In this document: positions 1,418 through 28,965 of the stretch, one piece after another | Position numbering within the stretch: the first letter of the stretch is position 1 | How the letters are laid out: every line of letters begins with the position of its first letter | Origin: a virus | Virus record (IMG/VR): IMGVR_UViG_3300028783_000001 | Coordinates: 96,001 to 160,000 of that record | Strand: one strand, 5' to 3' | Length of the DNA: 64,000 nt | Program-made: the position numbers and the translations under genes | The notes under the pieces: model-generated | Told to the model about the DNA's origin: nothing | Databases searched by the model: none | What the model saw: the letters and a program-made list of their open reading frames with translations, nothing else

Positions 1418-1969
1418 TCAAGTTTCTGGACTACCTCGGCCGAGAGTTGGCATATGTGGCCATGGTAGTGAGTTGATTTGTGCCTCTGTAGTGATAGTGC
1501 CGTTATCAGCGCCCATGAGCGCATCCGCGTGCGCGGCATAGACCGCGCCAGAATGCTCCTCGTGTGCTATCTTTAGAATATCGACCTCATGCTTGTTCAG
1601 AATTTCTCGGAAGCCAAATCCAGTAATTAGGGTCACATTACGATCTGGATGGGTTGCAAGAAAATTCCAAGCGAGCGTTACACGGGAATAGCAAGCGATG
1701 TCCGAACACATACGGACGAAGCGCGGGGCTTCCTTAGTCCCGACGTTGACGCGGATTCCCGCGTTTTCGTAGGTGTCGAGAAGAACGTTTGCATAATGCT
1801 TCAGCGTCTCTCTATTGGACGAGTACAGAGGGAATCGCTTTTCAAGATGCTCGACGCTTGCCGGCTCTGGCGACGATATATGCTCGTCTTCCTGAGCGAC
1901 ATAATCTGGGTGAACGGTTCGCCACGAAAGCCCTGTCGTCGCGTGGTGCGTGTAGCAATAAGTTGGCAT
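1418..1969 (-). CDS. Tail fibre assembly chaperone-like protein (DUF4376-like)
   Basis: Directly downstream of the 812 aa fibre; C-terminal GTITTEAQINSLPWP motif typical of these chaperones. Confidence 0.55.
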   Translation of the reverse strand: MPTYCYTHHATTGLSWRTVHPDYVAQEDEHISSPEPASVEHLEKRFPLYSSNRETLKHYANVLLDTYENAGIRVNVGTKEAPRFVRMCSDIACYSRVTLAWNFLATHPDRNVTLITGFGFREILNKHEVDILKIAHEEHSGAVYAAHADALMGADNGTITTEAQINSLPWPHMPTLGRGSPET

Positions 1970-1983
1970 AGCAAAACCTCTCC

Positions 1984-4422
1984 TCAGATGTTAATCTGTC
2001 CACCTTCGACGCCTACATAACTAGAACCGGCTTGCAGGGCGACAAACACTGTCTGAACCTGTTCGAGAATTACTCTACCACGCCCAGGAGCACCGCTGTT
2101 AGGGCCAGCCAATGCCATATAAGGTAACCAGTTACTATTTGGCGACAACGAACAGACCGCCGCCGAACCAGAGAAAGTGTAGAGGTAGAAGTCTACAGCG
2201 ACAGACTTAACTGGGACGACGCCAGCAAGAGAGACGGTTGCTGGTAACCAAGCGTTCCAGTTTGACTCAGAGCCAATCGGACCAGATGCCACGACGGGAA
2301 ACGCAATCGTGTTTCCAGACGATTGTAAGAAATGCTGCCACTGATCGTTGACCTGCCTAATATTGTAGAGATTCTTAGACGAGTCGGTACGCCGCCAGCC
2401 ACAGCGCATATAAATGCTGTAGCCGCTCGGCACGGTCGGTGCGTTACCCTCGATTGTCAACCACGCGGTCTGCATCGATGTCGCCGAATTATATCCGACA
2501 TAAATATCATATGTGGCTGATGCTGATATAGTTCCAGTATCAATTCCACCAGCACCAACTGACGCGGTATTGATCGTTGCTGAAAATCCAGTGACCCCCA
2601 TGATTGAATCAGCAGTTATGTTAATTACGCTATTTGGCACACCAGACGAATTAACAATGAGTAGGTTGCTATATCGTGAAGCAGCACCGAGTGGAAGGGT
2701 TGGTACGGCTTTTAGTGGATTACTAGGAAGCCCATTACCAGTTATAGTAGTTCCATCCGAAACAATAGCAGGTTTCCACTGCGCTAGCGACGCGGGTGTT
2801 ACCCATGGAAACAGAAAAGATGTCTGACTAACACCAAGATTGACCTCAGCATTGGTCGCAGCCCTACCGTCACCTAGAGCTATAGAGGTAGCGTTTGAAA
2901 TTCCATAATCGACGCCGTTAAAAGTTATTGGTGCTATTGCACCTGGGATAGCATTTGCGATAGGCAAGCCGCCGATTGCGGCAGCAATCATCGTTGCCAC
3001 ACCTGCTGGCGTCGCGGCCTTTACGTGCGTGTAAGGTGGTGTGAGATAATCAGCGTCGCCGGCCAGCTCAAACATATCAACGAGCAAGGTATTAGAGTTC
3101 ATTGCAGTACCAACAACCCAGCGCGTGGATGACCCGACCGGTGTAATTTTTCCGGCATTTGTTCCAGTGTTGGCAAAATAGAGCGAACCTGATGTAAGAG
3201 GTATCGGCCAAGCAGTTGTCGACGGAATAGTTAGGATTCCGAAAAAGACGACATGGGTCATCGTGCTGTCAAGCACGCCTGTAGGTCGATGAGCAAGGTA
3301 TGTGTTCTGGTCTGCTATGAGCATAGGATCAGCAGCACGCCATACACGCCCTACGCTCATATCGAGGTAGACGACGTCACCTGGAACCAAACCTGGTGCA
3401 ATTCCATCACTACCTATTAGCCAACCGATATTCTCTTGTGTATAGCCTACGTTGATATTGAGACCACCAGCCATTGATATGAATATATCAGTAGTATTAG
3501 TAGCGAATCCAGCAGGGTTACCATTGTTTACAGTGGTAAGATTTCCAACATTGGGTCCGGTACCTACATAATAAACAGTTCCTGGAACTAATGGTGTTGA
3601 CAGTCCGCATGCTGCAGCTGATACCATCCCAGACATAGTAATCTCGTATGGGCTAGTACGTACACCTATACCTTGTGTAAGCGTGGACCCGCCGTCTGCT
3701 GGAAAGAATGTATTGGTGTTAGTATTGAGATAGCATGCATAGCCGACTAGCGCAGTTGAATCAAACATATCTAGCTGACACGCAATAACGTTTATTCCCT
3801 GATTTGGCCATACGTGATGGGGTGCAAACATCCACGCACCATTGTTACGAACCGCAATGACAGGCTCGCCTATATGCGTGTGGTTGTCAACCAAGTAGGT
3901 GTTGAAGGGGGTAGTGCTTGCATTTGGTAAATCATTTTCAGTAGCAACTTCCGGTAAACTAGCAGAAAGGCTTTCGATAATCGTCAGGTTTATTAGTCCT
4001 GCTGCGTTTGCAAGGTGCATGACGATGTTATAAAATGTAGTATTACCCACGACGGTCGGTGGGTTTGATGCATACTTGGCTGACTGGCCAGGCAGTACAG
4101 TCTTGCAGAATAACGTCCCACCCTCAAGCACGATACCGATATTACCAACTTCGAAGTTTCCGATGCTAGGATCTAACCGAATACGCCAGATGATTGTATC
4201 CTGATCGACCTGACTATAGGTCATCATCGATGTATCGTTTGAATAAATGTAACCATCGACATCGGTATCCGTCTCTAATGCTACACTACCTTCAGCAGCA
4301 CTCTGGGTTCCTATACGGAACCCAGCAACATTTATCTGAGGTCCGGTAATTCCTGCCTCGATTGCCGCTGACATTCCTGCCAGGGTTATAACTCCTGATA
4401 CGGAGTAGGTAATGTTAGCCAT
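1984..4422 (-). CDS. Tail fibre protein with N-terminal baseplate-attachment (tail-collar) domain
   Basis: N-terminus ITLAGMSA...IGNFEVGNIGIVLEGGTLF resembles the P2 gpH-type attachment domain; repeated G..YY..G.LT fibre modules. Confidence 0.75.
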   Translation of the reverse strand: MANITYSVSGVITLAGMSAAIEAGITGPQINVAGFRIGTQSAAEGSVALETDTDVDGYIYSNDTSMMTYSQVDQDTIIWRIRLDPSIGNFEVGNIGIVLEGGTLFCKTVLPGQSAKYASNPPTVVGNTTFYNIVMHLANAAGLINLTIIESLSASLPEVATENDLPNASTTPFNTYLVDNHTHIGEPVIAVRNNGAWMFAPHHVWPNQGINVIACQLDMFDSTALVGYACYLNTNTNTFFPADGGSTLTQGIGVRTSPYEITMSGMVSAAACGLSTPLVPGTVYYVGTGPNVGNLTTVNNGNPAGFATNTTDIFISMAGGLNINVGYTQENIGWLIGSDGIAPGLVPGDVVYLDMSVGRVWRAADPMLIADQNTYLAHRPTGVLDSTMTHVVFFGILTIPSTTAWPIPLTSGSLYFANTGTNAGKITPVGSSTRWVVGTAMNSNTLLVDMFELAGDADYLTPPYTHVKAATPAGVATMIAAAIGGLPIANAIPGAIAPITFNGVDYGISNATSIALGDGRAATNAEVNLGVSQTSFLFPWVTPASLAQWKPAIVSDGTTITGNGLPSNPLKAVPTLPLGAASRYSNLLIVNSSGVPNSVINITADSIMGVTGFSATINTASVGAGGIDTGTISASATYDIYVGYNSATSMQTAWLTIEGNAPTVPSGYSIYMRCGWRRTDSSKNLYNIRQVNDQWQHFLQSSGNTIAFPVVASGPIGSESNWNAWLPATVSLAGVVPVKSVAVDFYLYTFSGSAAVCSLSPNSNWLPYMALAGPNSGAPGRGRVILEQVQTVFVALQAGSSYVGVEGGQINI

Positions 4423-24657: not shown

Positions 24658-24720
24658 GGTTGTTCTCCTGGTATGGTAGTGGGCTTGGTAGCAAGCCGGA
24701 TGGCATGATCAAAATTGGTA

Positions 24721-25245
24721 CTATGGATTGCTCTCGGATTCCGGTGGGTGAACGATGCACCGCTTGTCGGCCTTCAACATCCATAGGAGTTGTGTGGGTG
24801 TAGTGATCTGATCGGCGTCTAGCATGCGGCACCACTTGACCTTGGGATTGACCAGGGAGCTGATTACCACCATGGAGCATATAAACTCCTTGGCGCAGTG
24901 GAGCGGCAACCCAAATAGTATGCCGATGGCAGCCTCGTCGTCAAATTTGGAACCTACGATACTGAATAGGTAGTTGACCCAGTTGGCGTATTGATCAGCC
25001 GTCATGGGCAGGTCAATGAATTGCTGATCGGTGGTTCCGCTGTTGTACCACTCGTTGTTTGGGTAGTGTTGCACGCCAATGTTTATGATTGACGCAACTA
25101 TCGTTCCGTCGGAAAGGACTGCCTCGGCGTGGGCGAACTGCGCACCCTGCTCCAGGACGATAAACTCTGAAAGCAGATTCTTACGACCTAGTGTAAAGCG
25201 AATCCGCGCCGTGTTCTTGGGTGGGATCTTTGCAAAAAGTGTCAT
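24721..25245 (-). CDS. Permuted papain-like (YiiX/YebB-type NlpC/P60) hydrolase
   Basis: Likely start ATG 25245 (GAGGA). His before Cys: FAHAEAV ... VGSKFD ... EFICSMVV ... ITTPTQL. Confidence 0.7.
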   Translation of the reverse strand: MTLFAKIPPKNTARIRFTLGRKNLLSEFIVLEQGAQFAHAEAVLSDGTIVASIINIGVQHYPNNEWYNSGTTDQQFIDLPMTADQYANWVNYLFSIVGSKFDDEAAIGILFGLPLHCAKEFICSMVVISSLVNPKVKWCRMLDADQITTPTQLLWMLKADKRCIVHPPESESNP

Positions 25246-25298: not shown

Positions 25299-27833
25299 CT
25301 AGTACATACCATTCGCGGCAGCCATTTCGATGGTGAAGGTGGCGGACTGACGCGTAACAACCACGTCTAGCTGGATGTACAAGATGCTGAGGGTCGGCTT
25401 GATCCACAACGCTACCTTACACACACGCTGGTCGATCACTTGAGGCGTGTTGTTCGTCGCGTCGCACTGGACGTAGAAGTCGGTTATCCCCATCGCGTCT
25501 TCAATTGGCTGCAGGATCGCATTCTCGACGGTCTGGATCGTGTGCCAGGTGAATGGATTGTTGGGCTCAAACACCGAGTAGGCGCAGACGTTTACGGACT
25601 CCGTAACTACGATGATGATGAGCCGAACCACCGGCACCGACTGAAGCGCACTCATCTCCTGCTGAAGCGTATACTCGCCCCAGATGGTGAAGGCTGCACC
25701 AAACTTACGGATACAGTTTACCTGCGCCGCCGACATCAGGTCGCGATCACCCTCGACGTATGTCACGCGAAGGGCTAGTGCTGTATTGATGAGACCGCGC
25801 GTGAGACCGGCTGGGGCCCACCAAGCGGCGGCGACCTTATCCGTGTAGGCGTATTGACATGCAACCAGTCCACTTGGTGGAACATAGCGGCGCGCGCCCA
25901 TTTGGGAATCGTAGATCAGGATATCTGGAGAGTAGATTGCGCCCCAGAAGCTTGATATGTTCATCACGTTTTGGCGGTAGTTTACAGCCGCTGCTGGAGT
26001 CTGCTGATCGGACGGCATGTCCAGAACAGAGATGCAATCCATGCGTGCAGCCGCGAGGTTTAGCATACACTGATGCACTTCTGGAGTGGCATAGCCGCCG
26101 TTGATCAGGATACGAACTGTGACTTGGTCGGTATTTGCAAAGTCGGCCCAGCCATTTACGACCTGTGCCGTCGATGGTAGGGAGCCGTCCGATCCACCAC
26201 CAAGGTAGCATGCGGTGTTTAGCGCGCATACTGGCTGCGTCGCGGCGTTTACCGTTCCAGAGAATAGTGGATTCACATTCACCTTCACGCGCGGCGAGGC
26301 GTTTGCACTGGTATTGATTACATACTCAAACCCAGTAGGATTGCCGAGACCGTCGATGCCGTTGGCAAAGGTGCAGGAATAGAGTTCTGTCGGCTGAGCA
26401 AACGTGAAGCTCTCATAGACCACGAAGTTGAAGCCGTTGGTGCTCGGCGTGTTGTTTAGTGTTACCGTATAGGTGATGGTAGCTTGTGTCACTCCGAGCG
26501 TAACAGCTAGAGCGGAGATGGAGAGTATTGTAGCGGAGTCTGGGGCAATGAGCGTGACGATGCGGTTACCAGACGTTCCGTTGTTGGCATTTGTTACGGC
26601 GGCAGTAGCACCAGGGAACGCTGTGGTGTAGGCTGCGCAGAGGGCAGTCAGCGTATCATTGTTGGTAGCGTTTGTAGTTCCGTCAAACGTCGCGGAGAAT
26701 GTGGTGCCATTGATCGTAGCGGTGACCACGTTGTTTATTAGCAGAGCACCAGAGAAGCTTAGCTGCACGCGCTGCGGAGTTCCAACGTCGACGTTTGTGA
26801 TTCCACATGCGATACCAGCTTGGCCGTAGGAATTTCCCTTGGCCGACCATGATCCTGGATTCTCCGCAACGACAAACGCGAGCCAGTCGGCTTCGTAAAT
26901 GTTCGAGGTTGGAGCACCCGCGCCGGTAATGACAGCTGAGATTGTCATTACAATGGCCTCAGGAGAGATTACGCGGATGATGGGATAATTTGTTCCGAGC
27001 GGAACTACATAAGCGAGCCCGCCACCGGCGAGACCGTCGAGCACGGTCTGGATCGACTGGGCTACTGCATTGATGGTCGTGTTGTGATCTGTGGCGAAGT
27101 TTACCACCGTACCAGATACGCTGTTGATCGTGATGGTGCAGACGCTACCGGAGACGAATAGGCCGGTAAACTCGATGTCCTGGACGTCGCGATTGACCTG
27201 CGTGTAGTCGTATTGCGACCCCGCTGGCATCGTAGTGAAGTTTGTGCCGGCTGCATTACCACCAATAGTGTTGTTGCTTAGCAGACCGAGACCGTAGGTA
27301 ACATCGGCAGATACCACGCGGTCCATCCAAAGGCTAGTGCTCTCCAACAGGAAGGCGTAGGCCGAGTCTAACATGTAGCCGATCTGTGGGTTTGGCAGAC
27401 CATACGTCTGAACGCCCTGATTGTAGCTCGATACGAAGTTTGGACCGATTGGCCCACGCATTGCTGCACCAACGATGGCTCCGATGCTATCATTGACGTA
27501 GGATGGCTGTAGGCTGTCGTCGATGATGCGTGGATAGCAAATGTTCAACGGGGTTCACTACGCCCCACCCGCTCTTTCGAGCTGCTGCATGTTGCCATGC
27601 AGATCAGACTATATCACGGTCCTGTAAGGACCCTCTTCGTTTCGAGCACCAATCGTTTGTGCTCTACTCCCTTGCGGGATAGTCGTTAGAGGTTTTCCGC
27701 TTTCCAGACTAGCTGGTAGGCTTCTTTCCTACGGGATTGGGTCAGTGACCGTTCCCCGTTTAGAAGAGTTTGCTGAGGTAGTTACCTACTTCAGGCGCCG
27801 ATCCTTAACGCCGGGTGACACTCTGAAAGTCAT
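25299..27833 (-). CDS. Tail sheath protein, spliced: join(27833..27808, 27537..25299), 754 aa
   Basis: Splicing gives MTFRVSPGV|YPRIIDDS (canonical SPGVY sheath start); GAAMRGPIG, YVPPSG, WWAPAGLTRG, IWGEYTL, VFEPN motifs. Confidence 0.92.
27538..27807 (-). mobile_element. Group I self-splicing intron (270 nt, no ORF, IA-like)
   Basis: P1 GGCGU/GCGCC with U.G at the 5' splice site; P3 CUCUUC/GAAGAG; AAACGGGGAAC and AAUCCCGUAGG (P4-P6); P7 GACUA/UAGUC within AACGACUA and GAUAUAGUCUG; P7.1, P7.2, P8 and P9 hairpins; terminal G; P10 GGAU/AUCC; removal restores the frame. Confidence 0.95.
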
Positions 27834-28870
27834 GAGGTTGCTCCTTGCTTGGTTAAGCCCATCGCGGAGTATTTCATCCTGACGGATTCGAGAGATGTGG
27901 TGTCTATTGGAATGAGAACTGTTCCATGCCTCTTACTAAATTGGCGGATAGCTACCTCCAACTTAGCTGGCGACATCTCACTACCACCACCTTTATAGTT
28001 GTTATCGGCAGAAGAAAGGACCTGAAGGTTTGCTGGGTGGCATAGCATGCTCCACGGAGTCTGCTTTCCATCATGTGAGTAGCCGTCGGCAACACTAATA
28101 ATATGATCGACGACGTAACCCTTCGAGTTTAAATCTTTTGCGTTGCGTATTAGATTGCCGTACTTTGATATCATGACATTAGTATAGTGTCGAACCCTCA
28201 TGCGATAGGTCGACTTGTCTAACGGCTGGTCCACAACAAGTCGGTTTGGATGAATCCACTCAACTCGTACAGGATTTGCGTGTAGCTTACGTCCGTTAGC
28301 ATAGCTTCGACTCTGCTTAGCCCGCTTGTTATTCCACATTCCATACGCAGTTAGAAGCGACTTGGCCCGTGGACATCCGGCTAGACGTTGAATCTGAATC
28401 GAGCTAAGGTCTTTTATCTGGCGTAGGTAGATCATGTAGTAGATGTTGTACCTATTTGCGCTACGCGACTGCGTCCTAATACCAACTAAGCAATCTGGTG
28501 GTATCCATAAACCATCAATTATCCGGTTTAGACGGGCCGTATTTAGGATTGGCAACTTGCGCGAGGGCCTTACCACTAAGTTGTTACTGACTAGTACATT
28601 CTGGATCTTATAAGCAACCTCGCGAGCACCGAATCCACAGGGAACACCGACCCTAGTTAGTGCAATATGTGGTGGGTCTCCTAGAACCATTCGTCGCGTA
28701 ATATAGGCAAGCTCGTCATAGGACATAAGCTGAGAGGTAGATTGTTGTGGCAATTCCGTCTGTACCGTATTTGCCCACTCAAGTACCATGTCTATTGACA
28801 CTCCCTTCAATGCGAGGGAATGTCTACACCAACGATCTGGATGCTTGATTGGATCGACCCTGAACTTCAT
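27830..28870 (-). CDS. Free-standing HNH homing endonuclease
   Basis: C-terminal YVVDHIISV..G..LCHPANLQVLSSADNNYKG HNH motif; basic N-terminal region. Confidence 0.85.
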   Translation of the reverse strand: MKFRVDPIKHPDRWCRHSLALKGVSIDMVLEWANTVQTELPQQSTSQLMSYDELAYITRRMVLGDPPHIALTRVGVPCGFGAREVAYKIQNVLVSNNLVVRPSRKLPILNTARLNRIIDGLWIPPDCLVGIRTQSRSANRYNIYYMIYLRQIKDLSSIQIQRLAGCPRAKSLLTAYGMWNNKRAKQSRSYANGRKLHANPVRVEWIHPNRLVVDQPLDKSTYRMRVRHYTNVMISKYGNLIRNAKDLNSKGYVVDHIISVADGYSHDGKQTPWSMLCHPANLQVLSSADNNYKGGGSEMSPAKLEVAIRQFSKRHGTVLIPIDTTSLESVRMKYSAMGLTKQGATS

Positions 28871-28914
28871 CTACACACGCCGGGAGAAACTCTGAAAGTC
28901 ATGGTATTGCTCCT
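28867..28914 (-). repeat. Upstream copy of the sheath RBS and first 26 nt; 11-aa mini-ORF MTFRVSPGVCR
   Basis: AGGAGCAAtacCATGACTTTCAGAGTtTCtCCCGGCGT (28914-28877) vs AGGAGCAAcctCATGACTTTCAGAGTgTCaCCCGGCGT (27845-27808), 33/38 identical. Confidence 0.95.
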
Positions 28915-28965
28915 GTATTACGTGTGGCTTGGTCTACACCAAGGCTCTCATAAGTTTTAACACCG

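Follow-up and report, generated by a model that had tools for sequence, protein, structure and literature searches.

In collaborative homing, a free-standing endonuclease and a group I intron without an open reading frame act at one site, as with F-CphI and the psbA intron of cyanophage S-PM2; other precedents are T3 gene 5.3 and phiI I-TslI at a DNA polymerase intron site, and T4 MobE with the nrdB intron (PMC3984707, PMC6083498, PMC2790892). Fungal mitochondria harbor mORF elements associated with duplicated gene termini, described for atp6 of Allomyces and for atp6, atp9, cox2 and nad3 of Glomus (PMC3630166). How endonuclease genes and ribozymes were first united in mobile introns is a long-standing question. 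To our knowledge, experimental work has covered only about three collaborative-homing pairs. The layout that we describe here is probably a new arrangement of the collaborative homing partnership, with a parallel in the fungal mitochondrial mobile-ORF elements.

The locus lies in a window of 64,000 nucleotides of viral DNA (the whole stretch that was analyzed). The virus is an uncultured large myovirus, and the insertion point in its tail sheath gene follows nucleotide 26 (codon 9). All features of the cassette were found on the same strand as the sheath gene (Table 1). The core proposal of the initial annotation, that this is a composite mobile cassette, was strongly backed by the co-occurrence of nuclease and intron, by empty loci, by the scattered placement of the carriers, by the decay of the nuclease in one carrier (L011), by the base composition of the nuclease gene and by the ends of the displaced gene start. 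We consider it likely that the insertion is one composite selfish element which spreads by collaborative (trans) homing, and that the displaced start, copy 1, feeds translation of its nuclease.

Table 1. Features of the sheath locus, with positions in the window.
Feature	Position	Strand	Remark
Upstream small gene, 93 aa	28966..29247	(-)	Adjoins the sheath gene on its left in every related locus
Copy 1: displaced sheath ribosome-binding site and first 26 coding nt	28877..28914	(-)	Ends at the intron insertion site
Mini-ORF, 11 codons, opened by copy 1 (ATG 28902)	28867..28902	(-)	Sequence reading
Nuclease-like ORF, 346 aa, free-standing putative homing endonuclease	27830..28870	(-)	ORF list
Predicted catalytic domain, residues ~215-320	27911..28228	(-)	Profile matches, alignment, AF2 model
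Copy 2: ribosome-binding site within the last codons of the nuclease, and sheath exon 1	27808..27845	(-)	ATG 27833, exon end T 27808
Group I intron without ORF, 270 nt	27538..27807	(-)	Rfam RF00028
Sheath exon 2, 745 codons and stop	25299..27537	(-)	phrog_23 tail sheath, E 2e-64
Composite insertion, 1,339 bp (junction, nuclease gene, copy 2 and intron)	27538..28876	(-)	Exactly between copy 1 exon 1 and exon 2

As in the collaborative homing pairs, a free-standing endonuclease gene adjoins a gene whose group I intron encodes no endonuclease, the intron site falls within a highly conserved motif, and the arrangement is patchy among related phages. The ribozyme is also related to the T7-group DNA polymerase introns, with ~75% identity in its 3' half. 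In contrast to those pairs, the nuclease gene of the window is located 26 nt from the intron site and upstream of the start codon of the host gene, the host is a structural gene (tail sheath), and cleavage at this locus is a prediction. A further difference is the gene start, which is doubled in four of the five carrier lineages, so that nuclease and intron form a single insertion at the intron site. In this respect the locus is closer to the mORF elements, in which a mobile endonuclease ORF brings a replacement end for the host gene, the displaced native end is kept in diverged form, and the copies differ mainly by synonymous changes that indicate a foreign origin. The mORF elements duplicate the 3' end of the host gene, whereas the window has the mirror image, a duplicated 5' end with its ribosome-binding site. 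Unlike the mORF elements, the window also belongs to a phage and not an organelle, a ribozyme is coupled to the element, and the displaced copy has a new use as a mini-ORF before the endonuclease gene. Similar to classical mobile group I introns with an internal endonuclease gene (T4 td / I-TevI type), the inserted DNA fills the intron site exactly and holds both a ribozyme and an endonuclease gene. Unlike in those introns, the endonuclease gene lies outside the ribozyme loops and remains unspliced in the predicted mRNA leader, and the host gene depends on a second start.

The doubled gene start was present as first described: a direct repeat of 38 nt, 33 of them identical, in which the two coding differences are synonymous (GTT/GTG and TCT/TCA). 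Both copies terminate in CCCGGCGT, followed in copy 2 by the intron. When one 11-nt gap was allowed, the similarity between the copies reached farther upstream, to a common ACCAAGC leader motif. Copy 1 is contiguous with the native leader and the upstream gene and is probably the native sheath start. The N-terminal ~45 aa of this upstream gene were homologous to the gene directly upstream of the sheath in L002, L003, L006-L009, L011, L012 and L015, and gene order is therefore conserved across these loci. In the empty alleles (L006-L010 and L015), exon 1 sequence runs continuously into exon 2 sequence.

Equivalents of copy 1 were observed in L003/L004, L011 and L012 but not in L002. The distance from the end of copy 1 to the intron site was 0 nt in the window and in L011, 1 nt in L012 and 5 nt in L003, with copy 1 stopping short of the site in the last two. 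The two copies in L003 had 6 nucleotide differences and no amino acid differences (synonymous bias P=1e-4), with AGY versus TCN serine codons among them, and a synonymous bias was also measured between the copies in L012 (P=0.018). Such differences suggest that the copies diverged as working sheath starts each and were later brought together, which is the pattern expected if transfer joined two alleles. A diverged duplicate of the native end with a separate ancestry is likewise the signature of an mORF-type terminal duplication, with the 5' end duplicated in this case. The leader of copy 2 in the window has the phage's own ACCAAGC motif, which points to in-genome homogenization or long residence and not to a recent arrival.

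The shortness of the repeat, and nothing else, would favor a chance repeat or an assembly artefact, with the nuclease adjoining an intron-containing gene by accident. Against this, 33 of 38 positions match within 1.8 kb, and 100% identical pieces were found in two other metagenomes (L017 and L018), spanning the 3' part of the nuclease, copy 2, the intron and exon 2 and stopping short of copy 1. The same layout also recurred in other lineages, including two assemblies from independent samples (L003 and L004) that share the architecture with copy 1 included. On the identity of L017 and L018 and the recurrence of the layout we rejected an accidental origin, whose probability we regard as negligible; the initial annotation had already thought an artefact improbable.

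The mini-ORF opened by copy 1 ends in a TGA (28869-28867) that overlaps the nuclease ATG (28870-28868) as ATGA, and the nuclease TGA (27832-27830) shares bases in the same way with the sheath ATG of copy 2 (27833-27831), both as initially annotated. The overlap of the nuclease stop with the sheath ATG was seen in all five carrier lineages and is automatic, because the sheath start is conserved as ATG-ACN. Mini-ORF lengths were 11 codons in the window, 8 in L003 and 12 in L012, and in each of these three, the lineages with both a live nuclease and a copy 1, the mini-ORF ended on or beside the nuclease start. No Shine-Dalgarno sequence (AGGAG) was observed before any nuclease ATG. The recurrent mini-ORF and the nuclease genes without a Shine-Dalgarno sequence are consistent with a translational coupling that may lead ribosomes into the nuclease. 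It had also been proposed that the nuclease hands ribosomes back to the sheath start; this step is unnecessary, since copy 2 carries a strong AGGAG of its own. The cassette in L002 lacks copy 1, which indicates that the mini-ORF, together with the left homology arm that we consider below, is dispensable for persistence of the cassette. A promoter and terminator scan of the locus gave nothing beyond chance, and the folding energies of leader hairpins were ordinary (z about -1).

The intron of the window was recognized by Rfam RF00028 at 54.2 bits (gathering score 50, E 1.6e-12), in agreement with the ORF-less group I intron first annotated. The L003 intron scored 69.3 bits against the same model, and those of L002, L011 and L012 fell under the gathering score in a batch scan, yet could be aligned throughout. 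All five lineages have a U.G pair at the 5' splice site and a terminal G, and compensatory changes were found at 29 of 73 predicted intron pairs. The model score and this pairing pattern together mark it as a genuine intron under structural selection. Joining position 27808 to 27537 gives ...SPGV|YPRIIDDS, the uninterrupted N-terminus of 12 intronless homologues; homologues of exon 2 reached up to 62% identity. A strict intron pattern recovered L011 from metagenome contigs and gave no further loci in viral contigs. Bacterial genomes yielded no match. With a looser pattern, viral contigs yielded three thymidylate synthase introns (L019-L021) of other uncultured phages, whose ribozymes share the same P3-P5 core and have an I-TevI-like GIY-YIG gene inside.

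Group I ribozymes select their 5' splice site through pairing with a guide sequence. The two copies in the window are identical across the 8 nt that form P1, and CCCGGCGT of copy 1 could pair with the internal guide sequence as well. Some transcripts might accordingly be spliced from 28877 to 27537, which would remove a 1,339-nt intron containing the nuclease ORF and copy 2 and leave the sheath to be translated from its native start. Since the coding differences between the copies are synonymous, such splicing would keep the reading frame and leave the protein unchanged. However, copy 1 is 5 nt short in L003, is without the splice-site U in L012, pairs less well in L011 and is absent from L002, and the local P1 hairpin of copy 2, at a distance of ~20 nt from the guide, should be kinetically favored over a site that lies 1.07 kb off. 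We regard alternative 5' splice sites in the window as improbable, and copy 1 as a general alternative splice site was rejected on its lack of conservation in L003, L011 and L012 and its absence from L002. The composite element, spliced at copy 2, is the reading we retain.

Homologues of the nuclease were found at the same position in L002, L003 and L012, with 42-48% identity. The ORF was intact in these and in the window (332-346 aa), with invariant catalytic residues in all four lineages. The base composition of the nuclease gene is foreign-looking, with a GC3 of 48% compared to 63.5% for the sheath gene in the window and, in each of the four lineages with an intact ORF, a value far below that of the host sheath gene. 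A search with nuclease profiles gave 539 matches, all confined to the C-terminal domain, and this large unannotated family may hold new site-specific enzymes. Residues D255 H256 ... H278 P279 x N281 ... N290 x x K293 were invariant in a 32-sequence alignment. An AF2 model of the C-terminal domain from this 32-row alignment reached a pLDDT of 90.3; a full-length model from 3 sequences was unusable (pLDDT 39.6) and was discarded.

The label "HNH" comes from the initial annotation. The top fold matches of the domain model were all HNH or His-Me nucleases and all weak (Foldseek E >= 0.018; best Z 4.2), and included in Foldseek and VIA-align comparisons the Cas9 HNH domain, the Gme HNH nickase 4h9d (Z 4.2) and the HNH protein of phage GVE2 (Z 3.4). 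However, no curated HNH model matched, and the label thus depends on the invariant motif and the weak fold similarity. Pfam and NCBIfam models gave no match to the nuclease or its profiles even at E 10, a search that serves as a criterion for naming the protein and leaves its fold aside. A sequence search of the PDB with the nuclease or its profiles matched no solved structure. Seven of the 32 nuclease relatives matched phrog_1035 ("endonuclease VII"). Compared as profiles, the nuclease and the Endonuclease_7 protein of phage Berlin showed no significant similarity. Berlin ORF19 clearly belongs to Endonuclease_7, whereas the nuclease of the window is part of an unannotated family and is not Endonuclease_7 by match. 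For isolated phages, a tblastn search of 50,697 records gave no match.

Nuclease and intron were observed together at an identical site in all five carrier lineages (window, L002, L003/L004, L011 and L012; a small sample), and six or more related loci of matching gene order were empty (L006, L007, L008, L009/L010, L015 and the P0011 contig). As would be expected of an optional gene, the nuclease gene occurred sporadically between conserved neighbors. Carriers fell in at least three separate places in a maximum likelihood tree of the sheath, in which the window is sister to the empty P0004 (99/96), L002 is sister to the empty P0011 (96/87, 78% amino acid identity), and L003 and L012 form a clade of their own. 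The nuclease of L011 is a frameshifted remnant with an internal deletion, which on its sequence represents a decay stage of the homing cycle. Three kinds of allele had been proposed for this site, namely empty, intron-only and HNH-only. Empty alleles were found, but the P0010 contig was the single possible intron-only candidate and no nuclease-only allele was seen among the loci of known context. The P0010 contig (ERZ1426850, 5,185 bp) has a gap of 645 nt ahead of its called sheath ORF, a length that would suit an intron-only allele or one with a nuclease remnant. With the sheath protein or the nuclease alignment as query, no additional loci were found in viral and metagenome contigs.

These distributions were also compared with an old, vertically inherited cassette, which would have entered once in the ancestor of the group and been lost precisely many times, with the nuclease decaying or recruited elsewhere and copy 1 left as a functionless scar. 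In its favor, nuclease identity is uniformly low at 42-48% whichever carriers are compared, including L003 and L012 with their 68% identical sheaths, and such star-like pairwise values do not demonstrate recent transfers. A sliding-window comparison of exon 2 gave no signal of a co-conversion tract, and the nuclease decay in L011 and the phage's own motif in the copy 2 leader of the window would likewise suit a long residence. We nevertheless consider this history unlikely. It does not account well for an intact nuclease ORF with invariant catalytic residues in four lineages, or for sister loci that differ in cassette presence at 78% sheath identity. It also demands several exact deletions of nuclease and intron with the frame perfectly restored, for which an intronless template is normally needed, and the synonymous-biased differences between the copies indicate alleles of separate history.

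A mobile composite element, the reading we favor, would have three parts: a free-standing gene for a His-Me/HNH-like nuclease, a replacement ribosome-binding site and exon 1 (copy 2) in and just past the 3' end of the nuclease gene, and a group I ribozyme without an ORF. At the RNA level, splicing would take out the last 270 nt alone, and the sheath would be translated from copy 2. Copy 1 would be the recipient's own gene start, stranded upstream of the insertion and now acting as a strongly initiated mini-ORF, from which termination and reinitiation would probably give a low, late translation of the nuclease. The nuclease is predicted to act on sheath alleles without the intron, nicking or cutting them at the junction of CCCGGCGT and exon 2 or next to it, in the conserved SPGVY motif. 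The ends of copy 1, at 0, 0, 1 and 5 nt before the intron site in four lineages, are indirect evidence for such cleavage. If the allele were then repaired off a carrier genome, it would gain nuclease and intron jointly. Both copies retain the left half of the target site alone, and a carrier should therefore be immune to its own nuclease. Copy 1 may in addition provide the nuclease gene with a left homology arm of conserved sheath sequence, and with such an arm the whole cassette could home as an endonuclease gene within an intron does, despite the position of the nuclease gene outside the ribozyme.

More tentatively, and with less confidence than we place in the composite element itself, the locus may represent a third route to a mobile intron. 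Its endonuclease gene would have entered the intron site next to the ribozyme and not within it, a regenerated start would repair the damage to the host gene, and the displaced start would serve both as left arm and as a reinitiation launch pad that doses the nuclease. If so, the left arm would let the nuclease gene home into any sheath allele, whatever the variable upstream gene, and the decay of copy 1 in L011, where the nuclease is dead, would reflect the loss of that selection.

The related loci provide a natural series within one gene, from empty alleles through cassettes with and without the duplicated start to a carrier whose nuclease has decayed. An essential structural gene can evidently tolerate the insertion of an endonuclease gene at its very start, provided that the element supplies a new start. 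The cassette also explains the "truncated" sheath gene calls in the annotation of this phage group.

The source record is an IMG/VR virus sequence of 168.7 kb with an estimated completeness of 66%, and across the whole record the intron and the nuclease described here are the only members of their families. Sequence reading and repeat comparison agreed throughout with the initial annotation of the tail sheath gene start. The ribosome binding site (RBS) and first coding nucleotides occur twice (33 of 38 nt identical in the window), the displaced copy (copy 1) opens an 11-codon mini-ORF whose TGA overlaps the ATG of a nuclease-like ORF, that ORF ends in the start codon of the working duplicate (copy 2), and both copies terminate in CCCGGCGT at the intron site. 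Splicing would join SPGV to YPRIIDDS, the exact N-terminus in 12 intronless homologues. At the DNA level the cassette is a single 1,339-bp insertion that occupies the intron site precisely, with exon 1 (as copy 1) on one side and exon 2 on the other, and in this it resembles an endonuclease-containing intron. A chance repeat and an assembly artefact were both excluded, in line with the initial annotation.

Features of the sheath locus and of related loci (window positions unless a locus is named)
Feature	Position	Strand	Remarks
Copy 1	28914-28877	minus	sheath RBS and first 26 coding nt
Copy 2	27845-27808	minus	sheath RBS and first 26 coding nt; ATG at 27833
Nuclease-like ORF, 346 aa	28870..27830	minus	TGA overlaps copy 2 ATG (27833)
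ORF-less group I intron, 270 nt	27807-27538	minus	RF00028, 54.2 bits, E 1.6e-12; directly 3' of copy 2
Sheath exon 2	27537-25299	minus	tail sheath phrog_23, E 2e-64; tube gene next
Whole insertion	28876-27538		
Nuclease codons 1-7	28850-28870	minus	
17-nt direct repeat	28822-28838, 28932-28948		15/17 identical
ACCAAGC/AGGAG motif sites	24665-24689, 27841-27853, 28910-28933	minus	leaders of tube gene, sheath copy 2, sheath copy 1
174-aa ORF	24721-25245	minus	between sheath and tube genes; no Pfam match
Thymidylate synthase intron loci	L019:425-2525, L021:5578-7678, L020		P3-P5 core common with sheath intron

Sheath homologues in metagenomes were 44-62% identical, while a word-indexed search for full-length nuclease homologues returned only two (45-48% identity), at locus L002 and in a lineage sampled twice independently (L003/L004). 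Both lie directly upstream of a sheath gene, with the same intron in the same sheath codon as in the window and a nuclease stop overlapping the sheath ATG. Another carrier, L011, was located through a DNA pattern derived from the intron; its nuclease is a pseudogene, of which a frameshifted N-terminal stretch of about 30 codons and a C-terminal ORF of 58 aa survive, the catalytic part being deleted. The fifth carrier, L012, has a full-length nuclease. In L012 about 170 additional nt (L012:2255-2420) separate copy 1 from the conserved nuclease region and include a 40-codon ORF resembling a helix-turn-helix segment; the contig is a 3x long-read assembly, so artefactual frameshifts are likely and the ORF structure as read is doubtful. 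Empty alleles, in which the same small upstream gene abuts an unbroken sheath gene, were found at L006, L007, L008, L009/L010, L015 and the P0011 contig. Nuclease and intron thus occur together in all five carriers. The initial annotation had envisaged empty, intron-only and nuclease-only alleles: the first were recovered, no nuclease-only allele was seen among the carrier and empty loci compared, and one contig from the window's own clade (P0010; ENA ERZ1426850) is, by spacing, a candidate intron-only or nuclease-remnant allele. Its upstream gene lies 645 nt from the sheath ORF as called, whose first codon corresponds to about residue 75. That gap exceeds by about 100 nt what spacer, exon 1 and intron would occupy, and is much smaller than a nuclease gene would require.

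Carriers fell in at least three places in a maximum-likelihood tree of the sheath. The window, within a clade of empty alleles, has P0004, itself empty, as its sister (support 99/96); L003 and L012 group together (100/100); and L002 pairs with P0011, also empty (96/87; 78% amino acid identity), with L011 next. Vertical inheritance of an old cassette, with repeated exact losses, is an unlikely alternative since many precise deletions would be required. Between carriers, nuclease proteins were 42-48% identical in every pair and introns 75-82%. Third-position GC of the nuclease fell well short of that of the host sheath gene in all four intact carriers (48 vs 63.5, 42 vs 76, 34 vs 51 and 62 vs 90).

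We propose that the nuclease would cut intronless sheath alleles at the intron site, with both half-sites in a carrier shielded from it. Copy 1 would serve as the left homology arm, given that relatives vary in the spacer and in the 3' part of the upstream gene. At the RNA level the ribozyme alone would be removed, and copy 2 would supply the working sheath start. Such a system would work like collaborative homing (PMC3984707, PMC6083498, PMC2790892), with three differences: the interrupted gene encodes a structural protein, its start is rebuilt, and a single insertion contains both the intron and the endonuclease gene, the latter located 26 nt upstream of the intron site.

Copy 1 is present in four of the five carriers. 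In the window and L011 it reaches the intron site, whereas it stops one nt short in L012 and five nt short in L003. Alternative 5' splicing from copy 1, confined to the window phage, is improbable, and such a site is not conserved in the other carriers. The junction of nuclease and copy 2 is identical in all five, the nuclease frame running through the sheath AGGAG to end in the sheath-start ATGA. Differences between the copies were biased towards synonymous changes in L003 (6 nt, no amino acid differences, P=1e-4, including two unconnected serine codon families) and L012 (8 nt, 2 amino acids, P=0.018); the window differs by 2 nt and no amino acids (P=0.07), and L011, with its dead nuclease, showed no synonymous bias (P=0.11). 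Such bias is expected if each copy had been a functional sheath start in a genome of its own while they diverged, and the two were later joined; the same pattern has been published for mORF elements of fungal mitochondria, in which gene C-termini are duplicated (PMC3630166). The simplest origin, we infer, would be that a recipient was cut at the intron site and the left end of the break was joined illegitimately before the nuclease gene of an L002-like donor.

The translational relay initially suggested is likely in its first half only. Nuclease translation is probably coupled to the mini-ORF, because AGGAG is absent ahead of the ATG in every carrier nuclease and, wherever a live nuclease occurs together with copy 1 (three lineages), the mini-ORF terminates on or adjacent to the following start codon, despite differing junction sequences. 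L002, which lacks copy 1 and has its nuclease ATG 10 nt past the stop of the upstream gene, shows the arrangement to be optional, and handing ribosomes back to the sheath start is unnecessary because copy 2 has its own strong RBS.

Other repeats were observed nearby. Codons 1-7 of the nuclease (MKFRVDP) look like the beginning of the sheath (MTFRVSP), with matches at 11 of the 18 nt that follow the ATG (P about 1e-3); the L003 and L011 homologues lack the additional KF codons, so the likeness may stem from local conversion or from a third, older duplicate of the sheath start. The 17-nt direct repeat, which joins the copy 1 leader hairpin with conserved WCRH-motif codons near the nuclease N-terminus, is probably chance. 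ACCAAGC with AGGAG no more than 20 nt downstream occurs three times in 64 kb (0.11 expected), and at each site the motif forms the 3' side of a small hairpin; folding energies of these three hairpins were ordinary (z about -1). The motif may be a late-gene leader element of the window phage.

By sequence search the nuclease had no Pfam, NCBIfam or PDB match, and 50,697 phage records searched by tblastn contained none either. An exhaustive profile search retrieved 539 relatives, all aligned to residues ~215-320 alone; helix-turn-helix domains were present in some top-ranked relatives, and 7 of 32 relatives matched phrog_1035 'endonuclease VII'. D255, H256, H278, P279, N281, N290 and K293 are invariant across an alignment of 32 sequences, an arrangement that follows the DH...N...N signature typical of His-Me fingers of the HNH/Endo VII type. 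The same domain was predicted to fold with a pLDDT of 90.3, and the best structural matches of the model, all HNH nucleases, were weak (Foldseek E >= 0.018; Z 4.2, Gme HNH nickase). From residue pattern and model we call the nuclease HNH-like, as a prediction.

The five carrier introns were alignable over their whole length, with a consensus of 73 pairs, 29 of them showing compensatory changes, and each has U.G at its 5' splice site. Over its 3' half the sheath intron shares ~75% identity with DNA polymerase gene introns of T7-group phages, and the intron of phage Berlin contains an Endonuclease_7 ORF. In Yersinia phage Berlin (L016, 12730-15868), the end of this ORF (ORF19) is the start of the intron similarity. 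Ribozymes with the same P3-P5 core lie in thymidylate synthase genes of three other uncultured phages, where they house an I-TevI-like gene with GIY-YIG, NUMOD3 and I-TevI DNA-binding domains. These relationships point to a single ribozyme lineage paired with three endonuclease types, in three layouts.

The gap between sheath and tube genes, which holds the 174-aa ORF in the window, is almost empty in L002 and L003 and contains a tRNA in L006 (7248-7319) and a 320-aa ORF with no family match in L007 (7293-8255); insertions here seem to vary from phage to phage. L002 also encodes four tRNAs and an RtcB RNA ligase (181-1720 and 1653-3143) a few kb upstream of the sheath module.
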